This document shows, one piece after another, positions 5,721 through 62,558 of a stretch of 64,000 nucleotides of DNA. The notes under the pieces are model-generated. The model made no database searches and was not told the DNA's origin. It saw nothing but the letters and a program-made list of their open reading frames with translations. The DNA comes from a virus. The stretch covers positions 1 through 64,000 of the IMG/VR virus record IMGVR_UViG_3300035211_000097; one strand, given 5' to 3'. The translations under genes were made by a program, and so were the position numbers. Numbering within the stretch: the first letter of the stretch is position 1; every line of letters starts with the position of its first letter.

Positions 5721-5727
5721 CATGTAT

Positions 5728-5754
5728 CGTTTTCTGACATTATGACGTATAGTA
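5728..5754 (+). promoter_or_regulatory. Class A promoter
   Basis: CGTTTTCTGACATTATGACGTATAGTA, directly after a terminator. Confidence 0.75.
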
Positions 5755-5782
5755 ATATGAAATATTTATTCGGAGGAAATTT

Positions 5783-6793: not shown

Positions 6794-6871
6794 CCCTATA
6801 ATTTAGGGACGATAAAATAACAAAATGCTATGTAACTTGACTTATGTTAAAATGGTTTCAGGAGGTAAACC

Positions 6872-7510
6872 ATGAAAAAGATTGTGGTTATCATGTTATT
6901 GATCGTGGCATTGTCCGGGTGTGAGAATTATCTGTACAAGCCGTACAATGCTTATGTGTTCTTGGGTGGCAGCAATGTCAGCGAAGAACTGGCAGACGGA
7001 TTCCGGGATTGTATAACCCTGTATGATGAAACAGCATTGGTGATACAGCATGGGCATGACGATGAAACACTGGGATCATGGGTAAGGCTCTATTATGACA
7101 GTTATAAAGTAGAGCATAACCTGAAGGAAGATATCGGAGTTGTCGAAGCAATGCTTCGGGAAGATTACGGTGTGGATATGTTCTTCTGGTTTCAGGGTGA
7201 GCAAGATACTCTGACAGACTCAAGCCATATCTACTACGAAAAAAGGCTGGGGTTTATCCGGGAAGAGTTACGGGATGAATTGCCGGGAGTGTGTTATTTC
7301 AGCACCGTAAAAACTTGGATGGATGGTCTTGACTGGGAGCCTGCCTATCATCAGGACAAGATCAGAGAGTGTCAGCAGAGATTGGGTTATTACGATTTCG
7401 ACAGTAAGTATTATACAAAGGCTGACGGAAAGCACCTGACCCCGGAAGCAGCCTATCAGCTGGGTTGGGATATCGCCTACAAATATGCCGTTATAAAAGG
7501 CTGGTTATGA
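6872..7510 (+). CDS. Lipoprotein, SGNH/sialate O-acetylesterase (SASA/CE6-like) hydrolase
   Basis: Lipobox ALSG-C; GGSN, WFQGEQD and DGKH blocks. Confidence 0.7.
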   Translation: MKKIVVIMLLIVALSGCENYLYKPYNAYVFLGGSNVSEELADGFRDCITLYDETALVIQHGHDDETLGSWVRLYYDSYKVEHNLKEDIGVVEAMLREDYGVDMFFWFQGEQDTLTDSSHIYYEKRLGFIREELRDELPGVCYFSTVKTWMDGLDWEPAYHQDKIRECQQRLGYYDFDSKYYTKADGKHLTPEAAYQLGWDIAYKYAVIKGWL

Positions 7511-7703: not shown

Positions 7704-8162
7704 ATGAGTACTATTTATTTTTTACAAGGCCCTCCCGGATCAGGGAAAACTACATGGGCCATGGAGCTATTGAAAAAGCAGAACGGTAAAGCTGTTCGGG
7801 TAAATCGTGATGATTTAAGGGCCATGATGACAGATGGTAAGTATTCCCCGGATAAAGAAGACATGGTGAAGCTCGTACAGAAAATGATTACAAGGGTTTT
7901 TATTGGCGGTGGAAAAGATGTCATCGTTGATAACACCAATTTAAAGAAAGCTGATCTTGAGTGGGTGCGTGAAGTTGCTGCTGAAGATGGAAATTGCAAT
8001 ATAGAGATTGTGGATTATTTTGTACACACATCTTTATCTGTTTGCCAAGATCGTATGGTTTTAAGGAAGTCAGAGACCGGGCAAGAAGTAGTCAGGATGG
8101 AAAGACTGGAACAAATGATGGATACCTACAAACGGGAATTTCCTGCGGAAAATAAACAGTAA
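7704..8162 (+). CDS. P-loop kinase, polynucleotide-kinase (PseT N-terminal/AAA_33) type
   Basis: GPPGSGKTT, RVNRDDLR, VIVDNTN; no phosphatase domain. Confidence 0.8.
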   Translation: MSTIYFLQGPPGSGKTTWAMELLKKQNGKAVRVNRDDLRAMMTDGKYSPDKEDMVKLVQKMITRVFIGGGKDVIVDNTNLKKADLEWVREVAAEDGNCNIEIVDYFVHTSLSVCQDRMVLRKSETGQEVVRMERLEQMMDTYKREFPAENKQ

Positions 8163-8189
8163 CGTTTTTCCGGGTTCTGTCGTATAGTA
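8163..8189 (+). promoter_or_regulatory. Class A promoter
   Basis: CGTTTTTCCGGGTTCTGTCGTATAGTA. Confidence 0.75.
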
Positions 8190-8198
8190 AGGTAACAG

Positions 8199-18494: not shown

Positions 18495-18877
18495 TGAAGC
18501 AGGATGTACAATCCAGTTTGGATAAAGTAGAAGGGAAGCTCGCAGAACTTCAGGCACAGCAGGCGGTTTCGATCAATCAACAGAAAGAGCTTTTAAAAAA
18601 AGCTCACAGTAATATTGAAAAGATTAATCGGAACTTAAACGGATTGCAGAAAAGGCTGGAGCCATACCTGACAGAAGACGGAGAACCGGAAACACCTTCA
18701 CAGATAAATTCTTTTCTGGAATTACGGGGCAGGTATGAAGACCTGCTTGTTCTGCGTAAACAGGAACAGGACGCTATACAGATTATTGAAGAATCTCTGG
18801 CCGAGGCTGAACTGGGTATGACTTCCCCTGTCAACAAAGGATCAGATAAAACATTGGGAGCGATTGTTGATGAATAA
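18494..18877 (+). CDS. Coiled-coil hypothetical protein
   Basis: TAATG coupling; heptad pattern. Confidence 0.65.
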   Translation: MKQDVQSSLDKVEGKLAELQAQQAVSINQQKELLKKAHSNIEKINRNLNGLQKRLEPYLTEDGEPETPSQINSFLELRGRYEDLLVLRKQEQDAIQIIEESLAEAELGMTSPVNKGSDKTLGAIVDE

Positions 18878-22813: not shown

Positions 22814-22825
22814 TGTTATAATAAA
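22814..22825 (+). promoter_or_regulatory. Class B promoter of the head operon
   Basis: TGTTATAATAAA; operator-like palindrome at 22828-22842. Confidence 0.65.
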
Positions 22826-22857
22826 ATAACTATAGTAAAGTAAAAGGAGACTACCTT

Positions 22858-49175: not shown

Positions 49176-51008
49176 ATGAGATTAAATGACGGCAGAGGTT
49201 TGATGAGTCACAGATACAATACTGATGAAATTGTGTCTGTAGAAGATTTTAAAAACATGTCGATAGTGGAACAGAGAAACCTGACTAATTTTTTGGCATT
49301 GTATGTCATGAACACTTTTTCTACTGAAGAGCTTATAACCAATGATCTTTTTAATGTTTGTCTGGGAGGTGTTACTATACAGCAGACAGACTGGGATAAT
49401 AGTTTAGGAATGACTATAAATATATTACCGGGTGTCATTTTGTCTTTTAATGGGTATTTGAACAGTGCAGACTGGTCGTTGGTTCCCGGAGATGGTGAAG
49501 TGACTGCTGTATGTGTACCTGATGATATGGAACTTGTATGTTCTCCCATGGCTCTGAATTACAGGGGTAATGTAGAAATACGATGTATCAGGGATACGCT
49601 TGAAGAGAGTAATCGCAAATTTAGAAATCCTTCCACTCTGGCTGTTACTGAGTCTGATATAGATACTCGTGCACATTTCACGATACAAGCACAGTTTGTG
49701 GCTGGTACTTCTATTACAGCCCCAGCGGTAACAGCAGGATGGATAAAAATTGCAGAGGTAGAAACTAATTCCGGTGATCAGGCCGTTATGTCTCTGTATG
49801 AAATAGATCAATGGACAAGTGGAGCAGACACCGTTAAGCATATAAACTCAGTGGAGCGTAATGCTTTAACTGAACATCTTCCTATGTTCAAGGCCGGGGT
49901 ACAAGGCGCAGAGTCTACACAGTTTGTGCATGCTACTTATGATAGAGTACAGGGAAAAGCGTTGTGGTCGGCTGAAAAAGACAGTTACTATTTAGCCTCA
50001 GAATTGGACGGAACTTCATCTTATTGGAGCTTTGGATATTCTCAGAATGGCAAGGACTGGACTTTTAACGATATTTCAGGTGATCTTGCTACTGTATATG
50101 ACTTGGCCTACAGTCCTGTCTTAGACAGATTTGTTGTTGCTGGTTTGAATGCTTCTGGGGGTATTGTCTTCTTTTATTCAGATGTAGGTAGTGTGACTAC
50201 TTTTACTTTTGTAGCTACAGCATATACTTCCAATGCGCACATAAAAAATATTATATGGAGTGAAAAATTACAGCAATTTGTAGCGGTCGGGGGTGAAACA
50301 ACTATTGGCACTTCTTTCTGTTTTATATCGTCTGACGGAATTTCATGGTCAGTAAATAATATATCTGCAATACAAAGATATGTGTCACAGATTACATATT
50401 CAGAAGCGTTTGGTTATTTTTGTGTTTTAGTTGGACACACGTCTAATGTTTACAGTTATACTTCTGAGGACTGTGTGACATGGACAGTAGGAACTAAAAT
50501 AAATGCGACGACAGCGACAGCGCATGATATAGATGATCCAAACGGCATTATACTGATGTATAATGAGTCACTGAATTTATGGGTTGCTGTTCTTAAAAGC
50601 AATGTTACTGTAGATTATCTTGAGTCCAGTTATTCCCGTGATGGAGTAAATTGGAGCGGTGGTGTTTATGTCTGTCCTTTCGGAGCAATTGGTGATTATT
50701 ATGAAAGCGGTGCCTTGCATATACACGGATCAGAGTCTTTAGACTCCATAGGTGTCTTCATGATTGCCGGGTGGGAGGGAATTTCCTATTACACTAAAGA
50801 CGGTGTGTCGTGGTATTCTTTAAGATCATCGATAATGAAATCAAGGTCATTAGATGGTCGTATAGGTTATGTCGCTGGGGCAGGGCAGGACAACAGGATA
50901 TATTCTCTGGTATGGAATTCATTACGTGCTGAGTTATTGGTTGTGAAAAAGCAGTCATTTTTTAATGGCGGTACTCCAAGCCCTCAGGTTATCGTGGAGG
51001 TTTGTTAA
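49176..51008 (+). CDS. Tail fibre/receptor-binding protein 2
   Basis: Paralogous anchor (AP...GWIKIAEV); SQNGKDW, SSDGISW, SRDGVNW. Confidence 0.7.
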   Translation: MRLNDGRGLMSHRYNTDEIVSVEDFKNMSIVEQRNLTNFLALYVMNTFSTEELITNDLFNVCLGGVTIQQTDWDNSLGMTINILPGVILSFNGYLNSADWSLVPGDGEVTAVCVPDDMELVCSPMALNYRGNVEIRCIRDTLEESNRKFRNPSTLAVTESDIDTRAHFTIQAQFVAGTSITAPAVTAGWIKIAEVETNSGDQAVMSLYEIDQWTSGADTVKHINSVERNALTEHLPMFKAGVQGAESTQFVHATYDRVQGKALWSAEKDSYYLASELDGTSSYWSFGYSQNGKDWTFNDISGDLATVYDLAYSPVLDRFVVAGLNASGGIVFFYSDVGSVTTFTFVATAYTSNAHIKNIIWSEKLQQFVAVGGETTIGTSFCFISSDGISWSVNNISAIQRYVSQITYSEAFGYFCVLVGHTSNVYSYTSEDCVTWTVGTKINATTATAHDIDDPNGIILMYNESLNLWVAVLKSNVTVDYLESSYSRDGVNWSGGVYVCPFGAIGDYYESGALHIHGSESLDSIGVFMIAGWEGISYYTKDGVSWYSLRSSIMKSRSLDGRIGYVAGAGQDNRIYSLVWNSLRAELLVVKKQSFFNGGTPSPQVIVEVC

Positions 51009-52922: not shown

Positions 52923-53306
52923 TTGACTAAGAAAGAAAAAGTACAGAGAGGGATTAAATGGATTGTTGCTATAATTATTATAGTAACTGTCGGGATTTTT
53001 GCGATAGTTGCTGGTATAAACATCGGAGGGCTTATTAATAAACTTCTGGATCGTAAGAAAGAAAAAAAGGCTTTCCTGTCTGTAGACGGAAAAGTTATTG
53101 GTTCTCCGGTGAAAATAATCGGTAGGAAAAATCCATTCAGGGACAAGTCACTGTTAAAAACATCAGACGGTGAATTCATAAAACTTCCCTCAGGAATGGA
53201 AGATACTGATGTGGAAAACCTGATAAAAGTTAAAATAGAAATGAAGGATGGTGAGTATGCGGTCACTAAAAAGCACGATACTGTTACTGATATTTTTGAT
53301 AAGTAG
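52923..53306 (+). CDS. N-terminal TM protein, possible spanin-like lysis factor
   Basis: GGAGG + TTG; single TM; end of late operon. Confidence 0.45.
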   Translation: MTKKEKVQRGIKWIVAIIIIVTVGIFAIVAGINIGGLINKLLDRKKEKKAFLSVDGKVIGSPVKIIGRKNPFRDKSLLKTSDGEFIKLPSGMEDTDVENLIKVKIEMKDGEYAVTKKHDTVTDIFDK

Positions 53307-53733
53307 TCATGTAGTTTTTTCGGACGATCTTGAATATCCTACAGATGTCGAGGTTATGAAAATGATAGAGGAACATCCGGATTTGGTCGTTCCTATCGTT
53401 CAAAAGTGCTGGGTTCTGGAACATGCCACGCCGATTTTAATACTTCCAGATTTAATTTTTCTGGAAGTCAATGAAAACTTTAGTCAAGTTAATGGTAACT
53501 TTAGTCAAGGTAACACTAACTTTACTATAGTTATGTTTGAGGATAAACCGGCAACTTTAAAAATAGGAACTGAAGAGTTTAATTTGTTTTATGATATAGA
53601 TTTAGATGTAGCTAAGGTTGTCTATACACAGCCTGAAGAAAGTTCTGATGGCATACCGATCTGGGCGGTAGTGGTAATTGGTGCCGGTTGTTTTGGTGTA
53701 GGTTTTTTCGTGGGGTACTTAGTATTCCACTGA
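53257..53733 (+). CDS. Signal peptide + C-terminal TM protein, possible lysis accessory
   Basis: Overlaps the previous gene by 50 nt; MRSLKSTILLLIFLISS; IWAVVVIGAGCFGVGFFVGYLVF. Confidence 0.5.
   Translation: MRSLKSTILLLIFLISSHVVFSDDLEYPTDVEVMKMIEEHPDLVVPIVQKCWVLEHATPILILPDLIFLEVNENFSQVNGNFSQGNTNFTIVMFEDKPATLKIGTEEFNLFYDIDLDVAKVVYTQPEESSDGIPIWAVVVIGAGCFGVGFFVGYLVFH
53476..53532. repeat. Three 15-bp palindromic operator-like sites at 21-bp period
   Basis: AACTTTAGTCAAGTT, AACTTTAGTCAAGGT, AACTTTACTATAGTT. Confidence 0.65.
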
Positions 53734-53757
53734 GAAATTATAGTCTCTTTTATCCCT

Positions 53758-53798
53758 GCCGTGAGTGATGATCTGCCGTTACTCACGGCTCTTTTTTT
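53758..53798 (+). terminator. Terminator ending the structural region
   Basis: GCCGTGAGTGATG/CGTTACTCACGGC plus T7. Confidence 0.8.
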
Positions 53799-53803
53799 GA
53801 TGC

Positions 53804-53853
53804 TTGACAAAGATAAATAACTGTAGTAAAGTTACTATAACATTAGTAAAATT
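53804..53853 (+). promoter_or_regulatory. Sigma70-type promoter overlapped by two operator-like palindromes
   Basis: TTGACA-17-TAAAGT; AACTGTAGTAAAGTT at 53819 and AACATTAGTAAAATT at 53839. Confidence 0.7.
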
Positions 53854-53865
53854 AAAGGAAGGGAT

Positions 53866-54441
53866 ATGTTTGAAGAGATTTTAGGCAGAGAAAAAACACA
53901 AGCATTTATAGGATATTACGGTAGAAAAATATCAAAATGCTTCCCCGTTCTCTACACGTATGAAGACGGGAAACAAGAACTGACATTAGGATTATTGTCA
54001 GAGTTTGATCGTGGAGCCTTTAAAGGGCTGAGTGAATTACACATCCAGAATAAAGTACTTTCTGTGATTAAGTGGAAATTCATAGATTTGATCAGGTCTT
54101 CCAGAAAAGCTGGTATTCAGAAATATTTAAACGAAAACACTGAAACGATCGATGAGTTTCGGACAAGTTGTGATTATGATCGAAAGGTTTATCAGTATAC
54201 GGATGATTATGGAGTGACCAGATATCTTAGACGTAGCCAGCTGGATACTGCTTACGTAGAAGTGGCTGGCCGGTTTTTAAATTCCGAGTTGGCTTCTTTG
54301 AAAAATGCCGGTAAAATTTTGACGATGATTGCTGAAGGTTATCAACACTCTGAGATCGCAGATGAGCTTGGAGTGACAGCAATGTATGTCAGAAAACTGA
54401 GAAATGATCACGTAGTGCCAGCACTGCAAATGGAGTTATAA
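53866..54441 (+). CDS. Phage sigma70/ECF-like RNA polymerase sigma factor
   Basis: QE..LGLL and W.FIDLIR (region 2); EGY..SEIADELGVT..YV (region 4 HTH). Confidence 0.7.
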   Translation: MFEEILGREKTQAFIGYYGRKISKCFPVLYTYEDGKQELTLGLLSEFDRGAFKGLSELHIQNKVLSVIKWKFIDLIRSSRKAGIQKYLNENTETIDEFRTSCDYDRKVYQYTDDYGVTRYLRRSQLDTAYVEVAGRFLNSELASLKNAGKILTMIAEGYQHSEIADELGVTAMYVRKLRNDHVVPALQMEL

Positions 54442-54442
54442 G

Positions 54443-54727
54443 ATGGCTGTAAGCTATGAGGAAAAGAAAAAATTTATTCTTGAATGTTATAATGAAAAAC
54501 ACATGACCCGGCCTGAGATTTGCGATGCCTTATCCGAACGTTTTGGGCTGAAGATAGGCACGGCATATCAGGCAGTATACCGGGTGCTTCATGGTGAAGA
54601 GTTTCAGGTTCCTGCTGGAAAACGTAGAGCAAGGGGTTCTGTTCCGGTAGATAAGCGGACATGGAACAATCGATACAGCAACAGGTCAAGTATTGATGAT
54701 GATGTGGACTTATCAGCTCTGTCATAG
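54443..54727 (+). CDS. Small HTH-like DNA-binding protein
   Basis: MTRPEIC..L.ERFGL..GTAY..V.R. Confidence 0.55.
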   Translation: MAVSYEEKKKFILECYNEKHMTRPEICDALSERFGLKIGTAYQAVYRVLHGEEFQVPAGKRRARGSVPVDKRTWNNRYSNRSSIDDDVDLSALS

Positions 54728-54738
54728 AATAAATTTAC

Positions 54739-54766
54739 TTGACAGGGACTGATACACCATGATAAT
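54739..54766 (+). promoter_or_regulatory. Sigma70-type promoter of replication operon
   Basis: TTGACA-16-GATAAT. Confidence 0.55.
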
Positions 54767-54790: not shown

Positions 54791-55618
54791 GTGGGGAAAA
54801 TATTGGGAAAATACGATTATACAACAGCGGTGTTGCTTGTCATGTGCCAACATGGATATGCTACACCATCAACGATGACTGTCTGGGCGTACTTGCAGCT
54901 GCTTGAAGGCAGTCACATAAAAATTGAAGATTTTAAATTACACACAGGGCTATCCAAGAAAGCTGTTAATGCAGCTTTGAAGGTTTTGATTGGTATTTCT
55001 GTGGTTAGTCGAGAGCGTGAGAGTGTGACCACGCCGTATGCTTATCGCCTACATCCGCTGAAAGCACCGAAAACCCTGAAGGTTCCTCAGGAGTCGGCAC
55101 CGTTCTACTACTATACTAACATATTAGAATTTAACGATATTAATATATTAATACCTTGTAATGTTATTAATATTAATAACTTACACAGTATAGGTAGTAA
55201 GGGGGTTCCTCAGGAGTCTACAGGTAAACCACGAAGGGTAACTGTGAAAAGTATTCTTGCTGATTCTGACTGGAAAACTATTACTGATCTACTCAGTGAA
55301 TACTTTCCGAAACATAGTATACGGCCTACTGATTTGGTATACAGGAACCGCTGGAACAGACTGTGTATTTTGCTTTATGATGATAGTTTTAATTTACATA
55401 CCTATGCCGAATGGTATCGGCAGGAAAAGTTTGATAGGTTGGGTCTACAGTGGGGATTATTTGTAAGTAAATCTATGTGTGAAGAGTTCATAGATGCGGA
55501 AGACAGGTTTATTTCTAAGAAAAAACGTATCAGTAGTAAAATGCATACTACGAAAAAATGGGAGGGCAAAGAGGCTGACATTTCGTGGTTGGAAAAATTG
55601 GAGGATGTTGATGATTGA
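54791..55618 (+). CDS. Putative replication initiator (N-terminal wHTH, lambda O-like layout)
   Basis: TGLS..AV..AL..L...VV.R; AT-rich linker; directly upstream of DnaC-like loader. Confidence 0.65.
   Translation: MGKILGKYDYTTAVLLVMCQHGYATPSTMTVWAYLQLLEGSHIKIEDFKLHTGLSKKAVNAALKVLIGISVVSRERESVTTPYAYRLHPLKAPKTLKVPQESAPFYYYTNILEFNDINILIPCNVININNLHSIGSKGVPQESTGKPRRVTVKSILADSDWKTITDLLSEYFPKHSIRPTDLVYRNRWNRLCILLYDDSFNLHTYAEWYRQEKFDRLGLQWGLFVSKSMCEEFIDAEDRFISKKKRISSKMHTTKKWEGKEADISWLEKLEDVDD
55081..55218. other. Candidate replication origin inside the initiator gene
   Basis: 15-bp direct repeat GGTTCCTCAGGAGTC flanking an AT-rich core with 16-bp and 18-bp perfect palindromes. Confidence 0.55.
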
Positions 55619-61524: not shown

Positions 61525-62558
61525 GCAAAAAAGAGCAAGAATCTTTTTTAGCCGGGCTTAATAAAGCCATGGGTAACGATGAGGCATTTATGCGTCTCTC
61601 CACCCGTGATAAAAAGATAGTTACCGGTCTAAGTACCGGTAGCTATCTGCTTAATTATAAAATGTCGGGTAACCCTTTTGTGGGGTGGCAATATGGAAGG
61701 ATTGCTGAAGTTTACGGCCCTGAACAGTCAGGTAAAACTACGCTGACACTGCATACAATCGCAGAGGCGCATAAGCTGGATGCAATGAAAGGGAATAAAC
61801 AAGTGATAAATCCTGTTTTCATTGATGCAGAACACACACTCGATCCAGATTATGCTTCAGCTATTGGTGTAGACATGGACAGGCTTTATGTAATGCAACC
61901 AGACAGCGGTGAGCAGGCATTGACTGGTGTGGAGAAAGCTATAGACACGGGAAGTAAGCTGATAGTGATTGACTCAGTGGCTTCTCTTACTCCACAGGCA
62001 GAGCTTGACGGGGATATGGGTGATTCTCATATGGGTTTACAGGCCCGGCTTATGGGTCAGGCTCTCAGGAAACTGGTAGGAAAAATCAGTAAAAATCAGG
62101 CTCTGGTTATTTTTATAAATCAGCTTAGGATGAAAATAGGGGTTATGTTTGGTAATCCAGAAACTACTCCGGGCGGTAAAGCTTTGAAGTTTTATTCTTC
62201 CTACAGGCTGGATGTCCGGGCTGCCCGTGGTGATGCTATAAAAGGCAAACAAAGCCTATCAAATATAAAAGCGGACAAGGATGAAAATGAGATAGGTATA
62301 AAAACGAAAATAAAGATCGTTAAAAATAAATTGTACCCTCCGTATAAAAGAGCGTTGCTTCCTATTATTTACGGACGGGGTTTTGACAAGGAAAAAGACA
62401 TTGTGAAATTTTTGGAGTTGTGTGGTTATCTTGATGACGGTTTTGAACTTCCATCTTTAGGTAAGACTTATCAGAAACCGATGTTTAAAAAGGTATTAAG
62501 CAAACCAGAAGTGCAGGGAGATGTCTTAGCATTTTTGAAAAGGGAGTTTGTAGAATGA
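61521..62558 (+). CDS. recA: RecA/UvsX recombinase
   Basis: EVYGPEQSGKTT, FIDAEH, IDSVA.L.P..E, FINQ.R, ETTPGG.ALKFY. Confidence 0.95.
   Translation: MSKKEQESFLAGLNKAMGNDEAFMRLSTRDKKIVTGLSTGSYLLNYKMSGNPFVGWQYGRIAEVYGPEQSGKTTLTLHTIAEAHKLDAMKGNKQVINPVFIDAEHTLDPDYASAIGVDMDRLYVMQPDSGEQALTGVEKAIDTGSKLIVIDSVASLTPQAELDGDMGDSHMGLQARLMGQALRKLVGKISKNQALVIFINQLRMKIGVMFGNPETTPGGKALKFYSSYRLDVRAARGDAIKGKQSLSNIKADKDENEIGIKTKIKIVKNKLYPPYKRALLPIIYGRGFDKEKDIVKFLELCGYLDDGFELPSLGKTYQKPMFKKVLSKPEVQGDVLAFLKREFVE

Follow-up and report, generated by a model that had tools for sequence, protein, structure and literature searches.

The DNA analyzed here is a window of 64 kb, the first part of an IMG/VR record of 95,702 bp that IMG/VR lists as complete (CheckV estimate of 100%, 32-bp terminal repeat). 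Positions are those of the window unless they are marked as genome positions, which refer to the entire record. The uncultivated tailed phage represented by the record is a myovirus, and nearly all of its genes are carried by the plus strand. The major head protein has a match to phrog_752 and 27 to 29% identity with its counterparts in SPO1-like Bacillus phages, and a head protease and a tail sheath are also encoded. The phage is without a close cultured relative: cultured phages gave zero matches, at the DNA and protein levels, to the region described below and to its sigma-like gene, and the helicase of the phage is at most 22% identical to proteins of cultured phages. No Rfam family was detected in a scan of the whole genome. 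Pfam domains found among 83 small ORFs included a Tad2-like (anti-Thoeris) domain, a dUTPase, an inorganic pyrophosphatase, a DUF2958, and a Mu Com-like zinc ribbon. A tRNA-like sequence at L028:13580-13670 contains D-arm-like and T-arm-like stretches and ends in GGTTCGAATCCCAC; it is called neither by ARAGORN nor by Rfam and may be an interrupted or degenerate tRNA.

The sites considered here lie at the junction between the end of the structural operon and the start of the replication module; the genes at 53248, 53866, and 54443, the terminator at 53758, and the promoter at 53804 are on the plus strand. The final gene of the 31-kb structural/tail operon (53248-53733) encodes a membrane protein of 161 aa with a signal-like N terminus, a C-terminal membrane helix, and no family match. 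This operon is closed by a strong intrinsic terminator (53758-53789), a hairpin of 13 pairs, 7 of them G-C, followed by a T run. The terminator precedes a sigma-70-type promoter (53804-53832), composed of TTGACA at 53804-53809, a 17-nt spacer, and TAAAGT at 53827-53832. Downstream are the gene for an ECF-like sigma of 191 aa (53866-54441) and the gene for a helix-turn-helix (HTH) protein of 94 aa (54443-54727), which begins 2 bases past the stop codon of the sigma gene. A second promoter at 54739, which is free of the palindrome described below, is located ahead of the replication genes, in the order initiator-like ORF (54791-55618), DnaC-like ATPase, and DnaB helicase.

The gene at 53866 had been taken in the initial annotation for that of a phage sigma factor, which is plausible. 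Pfam yielded weak matches of the 191-aa protein to HTH_23 (E of 7e-4) and, both below the cut-off, to Sigma70_r4 (E of 0.01) and Sigma70_r4_2 (E of 0.041), with no match to Sigma70_r2; profile matches in the PDB were mostly LuxR/GerE-type HTH domains. The AF2 model, calculated from a seven-sequence alignment with a mean pLDDT of 81, contains a sigma-2-like helical domain (residues 2-78) and a second helical domain resembling a sigma-4/GerE-like HTH (residues 123-190), connected by a low-confidence linker. This is the two-domain layout of group 4 of the sigma-70 family, with sigma-2 and sigma-4 present and regions 1 and 3 absent, and an EDAKQEL stretch in the N-terminal part of the sequence resembles region 2.2. 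The top PDB matches found by Foldseek were all ECF sigmas (SigH, SigL, SigE, AlgU, SigK, and BldN) with both domains aligned, albeit as weak matches (best E of 5.8e-3, probability of 0.93, TM of 0.26-0.31, about 190-207 columns). An exhaustive HMMER search found four homologues with 24-45% identity; one of them, 26% identical, carries the JGI name sigma24 family. The homologue with 45% identity, P0002, is located on a contig of 922 bp, and P0004 is on a contig of 81 kb. A word search in 5.8 billion proteins returned solely the query protein itself, and the family had zero relatives in 185,579 bacterial genomes. The weak fold matches together with the sigma24-named homologue make ECF-like sigma a reasonable designation of the 53866 product.

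Candidate promoters for such a sigma factor are present in the same genome. The motif GTA[AT]C-N17-CGTA has eight matches on the plus strand of the genome, with about 2 expected over three spacings. The spacer has 17 nt in 8/8 matches, and a T-tract follows the AAC in most of them. They are located at 777-808, 1844-1875, 5724-5755, and 8159-8190 in the window and at genome positions 68517, 82421, 92655, and 94797, with a continuation as CGTATAGTA in all except that at 68517. Small genes at either end of the record and, in one case (68.5 kb), a gene of the replication region are found downstream of them. The pattern of AAC, T-tract, and CGTA is that of promoters of Bacillus subtilis ECF sigmas (PMC5758882), and the matches carry the AAC at −35 and CGT at −10 of cognate ECF promoters. 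The eight promoters are probably the regulon of the phage ECF-like sigma, although a host ECF sigma might use them instead. The head/tail operon does not possess a promoter of this type and is preceded instead by an extended −10 promoter. Of the earlier proposal that a phage sigma factor starts the lytic cascade, the phage sigma factor is thus supported and the start of the cascade only in part, as its likely promoters do not lie before the head/tail operon.

About 12 copies of one palindrome of 15-17 bp occur in the 96-kb genome, arranged in phased groups on or near several promoters. The half-site is AACTT[T/G]A, with one central base between the two halves and frequently a flanking T...A. 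Five copies had been reported to start at 53476, 53497, 53518, 53819, and 53839; all five are present, and in each of these 7-1-7 pseudo-palindromes 5 or 6 of the 7 positions pair. The consensus given for them, AACTWTASTAWAGTT, is matched exactly only at 53518, with one mismatch at 53476 and 53819 and two mismatches at 53497 and 53839. When up to two mismatches to this consensus were allowed, 6 matches were found in the window compared to 0.75 expected and a maximum of 3 in 100 shuffles. In the 95.7-kb genome, the core AACT-N7-AGTT was counted 8 times, with about 2.6 expected, and the same core with spacers of 3-6 or 8-12 nt instead of 7 occurs 0-2 times.

The motif was significant over background, and this was cross-validated in both directions. 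For the forward test, a symmetrised matrix was made solely from the five copies of the initial annotation and run on the unseen 31.7 kb of the genome (64-95.7 kb). It found 7 matches of at least 13 bits compared to 0.19-0.35 expected; the largest count in simulations (300 per model) was 2-3. Two pairs among these matches are 19-22 bp apart, compared to 0 in 900 simulations. Three of the seven form an array of their own (array C, see below), and 2/7 are in the spacers of repeated sigma-70-like promoters. For the reverse test, an independent matrix derived from six sites outside the window alone was applied to the 64-kb window. All five initial sites (53476, 53497, 53819, 53518, and 53839) were within its top 7, and 6 matches reached at least 14 bits, with 0.34 expected. 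When every 5+5 palindrome of the genome was scored for spacers of 0-11 nt, TAACT-N7-AGTTA ranked first (4 observed versus 0.05 expected) and AACTT-N5-AAGTT third. These statistics support a real, dispersed, and phased palindrome. Since the three copies of the upstream array and the three copies of a repeated promoter, both described below, each count as one origin, the sites represent roughly seven independent loci.

Three phased arrays were found, with a centre-to-centre spacing of 20-21 bp in all of them, and two of the three are essentially non-coding. Array A consists of three sites (53476-53490, 53497-53511, and 53518-53532) with centres at 53483, 53504, and 53525, thus in 21-bp steps, 270-330 bp upstream of the −35 motif of the 53804 promoter. 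It is housed in the coding sequence of the membrane-protein ORF 53248-53733, where it reads NFSQVNGNFSQGNTNF and encodes NFSQVNG/NFSQGNT/NFTIV. The 21-bp period noted for this triplet is that of a tandem repeat (TRF, 2.3 copies, 85% matches), and because the copies form a coding tandem repeat inside the ORF, they should not be counted as three separate events; taken by itself, the array could be no more than a coding repeat. Where Asn and Gln are encoded within the sites, the codons used are the minor ones of the genome (AAC, 28%; CAA, 22%), an argument that is weak because two of the copies duplicate each other. Array B consists of two sites (53819-53833 and 53839-53853; 14.8 and 12.5 bits with the independent matrix) with centres at 53826 and 53846 in a 20-bp step. 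As had been proposed, the site at 53819 overlaps the −10 motif of TTGACA-17-TAAAGT, covering the end of the spacer and the −10 motif, and the site at 53839-53853 covers the likely transcription start. Array C contains three sites in alternating orientation (genome positions 92592-92646; centres at 92599, 92619, and 92639; 20-bp steps). It begins in the final codons of an ORF for an acidic protein of 183 aa and ends 9 bp before the −35 motif of an ECF-type promoter, so that its centres are at about −49, −69, and −89 relative to the expected start. This placement upstream of a promoter would suit activation as well as repression.

Further sites belong to a promoter repeat of about 50 bp, which is present in three copies, at 6800-6853 in the window and at genome positions 75679 and 77316 (L027:11679-11735 and L027:13316-13372). 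Each copy contains one site (6834-6848 in the window, and genome positions 75713 and 77350), which fills most of the spacer between −35 and −10. The window copy has an extended −10 motif, TG-n-TAAAAT, ahead of the gene 6872-7510, and that at genome position 75704 is a perfect TTGACA-17-TATAAT. The site at 6834 had been listed as a weaker copy. It is a copy of the motif (14.1 bits with the independent matrix), although "weaker" does not describe it well, as the spacer of the repeated promoter itself is the site. The promoter copies at 75.7 and 77.3 kb are followed by a conserved leader (about 130 nt; GGAGTTCAGGGAACTGAC...GGATGCATACCCTCC), which has no Rfam match and may be a structured RNA. Single sites are located in the leader of one of the repeated promoters (genome position 75860), inside an ORF (genome position 71119), and, isolated, inside a tail-gene ORF at 50617-50631 (13.4 bits with the five-copy matrix and 15.1 with the independent one). 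The copy reported just downstream of the head-operon promoter (22828-22842, about +1 to +14 past the extended −10 motif TG-t-TATAAT at 22814-22822) scored 15.2 bits with the five-copy matrix and is doubtful since it reached only 9.8 bits with the independent matrix.

Some similar sequences were set aside. A core match at genome position 80601 was rejected as a site, as it belongs to an unrelated hairpin family. The sites contain TTGACT and were considered as minus-strand promoters, which was rejected because a −10 motif at the proper spacing and minus-strand genes are absent there. A family of about nine intergenic elements, each composed of TTTGTGGG, a variable hairpin, and TGCTGAAC, is found amid the small genes at 76-82 kb (L027:12105-14912, L028:118-2144, and 61674-61729 in the window); RNAalifold predicted 14 pairs for it, with compensatory changes in 6/14. 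When IMG/VR was scanned with a pattern of two phased sites, the only matches were a coding repeat of a giant virus and an unrelated tandem repeat of 11 bp. An unrelated viral contig of 44 kb contains four tandem copies of CTTGACTAAAG with an 11-bp period in an intergenic region (L037:1335-1380), an 11-mer that also forms the core of the palindrome sites in the phage studied here.

Among relatives, the region is covered only by G001, whose helicase is 40% identical to that of the phage. G001 has kept the layout, with a membrane protein, a terminator, a TTGACA-17-TATATT promoter, a sigma-like gene, and an HTH gene. The motif is missing from G001, where the best score was 11.1 bits, which counts against the operator reading given below, although G001 is too distant a relative for a test of conservation; a scan of G001 for any enriched palindrome gave none. 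IMG/VR searches with the sigma factor, P0002, P0004, and the helicase returned nothing or G001 only. Scanning metagenomes with the helicase alignment yielded 13 short contigs, 0 of them with usable sequence upstream of a sigma-like gene, and L024 has only 51 bp upstream of its sigma-like gene. G001 itself (L030-L034) carries the 11-mer CGGACTTTCGG at seven places on both strands, for example, at the reverse-strand positions 18707, 42145, and 85426, and the leader of its sigma promoter shares 17/18 bases with a site at 83.39 kb.

The phasing of the sites by two helical turns, their dyad symmetry, and their placement over core promoter elements suggest that the palindrome may be the operator of a dimeric DNA-binding regulator, which would serve a small regulon and most likely time the lytic program. 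We give about half of our confidence to this reading, for which the sequence statistics and the placement of the sites speak well. The sites are placed where a bound protein should block RNA polymerase. Host RNA polymerase would transcribe the sigma/HTH operon early, the regulator would accumulate and bind in a cooperative manner to sites separated by two helical turns, and it would shut off its own promoter and the other promoters served by host sigma factors. The ECF-like sigma could then take over at the eight GTAAC-N17-CGTA promoters. The triplet upstream may raise the local occupancy, possibly by looping. A possible site at the head operon does not fit a simple early shut-off.

In this operator reading, the regulator would most likely be encoded by the phage, with the HTH protein from the same operon as the best candidate. 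The initial annotation had named the 54443 product as an HTH protein, in agreement with the three-helix HTH domain that AF2 predicts for residues 5-50 (pLDDT of about 87-90); behind this domain are a basic segment, which is disordered, and an acidic tail. Fold and family matches were non-significant and generic HTH domains, including KorA and transposase HTHs; the fold match to KorA had an E of about 1 and a probability of 0.3-0.4. The pair of sigma and HTH genes is kept in the distant relatives G001, L024, and L019, and Pfam detected no other DNA-binding family among the 83 small ORFs. This conserved pairing and the lack of another DNA-binding family make the 54443 protein the best candidate binder. 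That it indeed binds the palindrome is a tentative assignment, which we consider possible rather than probable. Alternatively, the protein could be an anti-sigma factor, as is usual for the gene next to an ECF sigma, and a host protein is a possible binder, too.

A host protein would give the palindrome a different meaning, as the site of a global regulator of the host that ties the early promoters of the phage to host physiology. The absence of a recognizable repressor family from the phage proteins would agree with this, and a 15-bp AT-rich 7-1-7 palindrome has the form of CodY or Fur-family boxes. The sequences differ from these boxes at conserved positions, and we know of no regulator box that the motif matches. 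Moreover, a conserved HTH gene is located within the regulated operon itself. A host regulator is an unlikely explanation.

The initial annotation had seen a candidate switch between lysis and dormancy in these sites. They would then be operators of a lysogeny-type repressor that silences the sigma gene and other promoters, with the triplet and the pair forming a loop similar to OL/OR. The 3 + 2 sites about 300 bp apart over the promoter of a master regulator would suit such a repressor. So would the sites at several promoter classes, perhaps including that of the head operon, an arrangement reminiscent of global prophage repressors such as P1 C1. Against this stands the gene content of the phage. 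An integrase, a serine recombinase/resolvase, an S24 peptidase, ParA, and ParB were all absent when the complete genome was searched, and no HTH_3 (Cro/CI) domain scored above the cut-off, the sole weak match of 13.3 bits being the HTH of the sigma factor itself. Positive controls in well-known genomes were detected by the same searches. The 83 small ORFs contain no Pfam DNA-binding family, as mentioned above, and relatives of the sigma factor were not found in bacterial genomes. In these genomes, the capsid gene was confined to two short MAG contigs (30.7 kb and 4.5 kb), which are probably mis-binned phage. The structural proteins are SPO1-like, and the cultured SPO1-like phages include many virulent phages of Bacillus and Staphylococcus. 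A lysogeny-type repressor is distinctly unlikely on these grounds. A dormancy switch is unsupported, because the complete genome lacks an integrase, a resolvase, a Cro/CI-type HTH, S24, ParA, and ParB and because sigma relatives were not found in the 185,579 bacterial genomes. Dormancy in general is improbable. This includes the specific case, equally improbable in our view, that an SPO1-like myovirus without integrase and partition genes is kept silent, in a carrier state or an unconventional lysogeny, by a repressor other than the Cro/CI type on the sigma promoter. If this were true, release of one repressor would start the whole cascade. With lysogeny genes and sigma relatives in bacterial genomes both missing, the circuit is read as negative autoregulation with early shut-off within a lytic program.

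The neighboring replication module raises the question of iterons or partition-type repeats for a replication initiator, as in iteron plasmids, whose origin is marked by direct repeats while autoregulation is provided by an inverted repeat at the rep promoter. Array A with its three direct repeats in a 21-bp period is located 1.3 kb upstream of the initiator-like, DnaC-like, and DnaB genes, and the promoter of the operon running into the replication module carries sites. The best candidate for an origin is elsewhere, 1.6 kb from array A, and has a different repeat, so that direct repeats of the palindrome do not mark it. The AT maximum of the genome (55106-55185; 80 bp with 84% AT) falls within the initiator-like ORF 54791-55618, with the direct repeat GGTTCCTCAGGAGTC of 12-15 bp on either side at 55081 and 55204, and the minimum of the detrended cumulative GC skew is at 55408. 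From these features, the origin is likely at 55081-55218, and an origin candidate inside an initiator-like ORF is a lambda O-like layout. The motif is also found in the spacers of unrelated promoters 20-40 kb away, and the own promoter of the replication genes at 54739 does not contain a site, which makes iterons very improbable. Hardly credible is the notion that the sites have no function, with array A being a coding tandem repeat (NFSQ) that resembles a promoter element by chance: array A is indeed a tandem duplication, and an unrelated giant-virus contig uses identical DNA words in a coding SNFSQD repeat, but this does not agree with the two-way cross-validation, the third, non-coding phased array, the top rank in the palindrome scan, and the minor codons at the site positions.

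If the palindrome is an operator for lytic timing, the arrangement can be compared with known systems. The operators OR and OL of lambda, bound by CI and Cro, are similar in that dimer-sized palindromes are phased in twos and threes, overlap a promoter, and have a distant group that could loop; the two sites of array B (53819 and 53839; 20 bp from centre to centre) are phased palindromes that overlap the promoter of the putatively regulated gene. In contrast to lambda, the phage has no HTH_3 protein, and thus no HTH_3 repressor/Cro pair with a lysogeny module, no S24 protein, no integrase, and no divergent promoters. Moreover, the putatively regulated gene here encodes a sigma factor, and at least five loci carry the sites. 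The P1 C1 and RK2/RP4 KorA systems are comparable in that a single repressor acts on operators at many promoters of an element of 60-95 kb. The P1 operators are asymmetric, and P1 and RK2/RP4 are kept as plasmids with partition genes, which this genome does not possess.

A switch in a strictly lytic phage is provided by p4 of phi29, a small dimeric protein on phased inverted repeats that represses early promoters and activates a late one. This logic fits the sites found here over some promoter cores and upstream of another promoter. The comparison with p4 is one of logic, and phi29 differs in having no sigma factor of its own and in carrying the p4 sites in one short control region. In phiEco32 and 7-11, promoters of host sigma-70 drive the early genes including that of the phage sigma, and a phage function then shuts early transcription off while the phage sigma takes over (PMC4331800). 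The shut-off in these phages was ascribed to a protein acting on host RNA polymerase, an "anti-sigma factor," and not to operators (PMC4331800), whereas palindromic sites are present on the early promoters here. By analogy, the p4 switch of phi29 and the phiEco32 group appear to be the nearest counterparts in logic.

As it stands, the regulation found here is of an ordinary kind in a new setting. The host-type promoters with a palindromic operator, the ECF-like sigma with its eight promoters, and the candidate autoregulator provide a testable wiring for a lineage of uncultivated phages in which hardly any regulators are annotated. If binding of the regulator to the palindrome is true, the operator, the HTH protein, and the sigma/promoter sets would be compact orthogonal parts, and the phage would be an example of an operator-based early shut-off in a phage with its own sigma factor.
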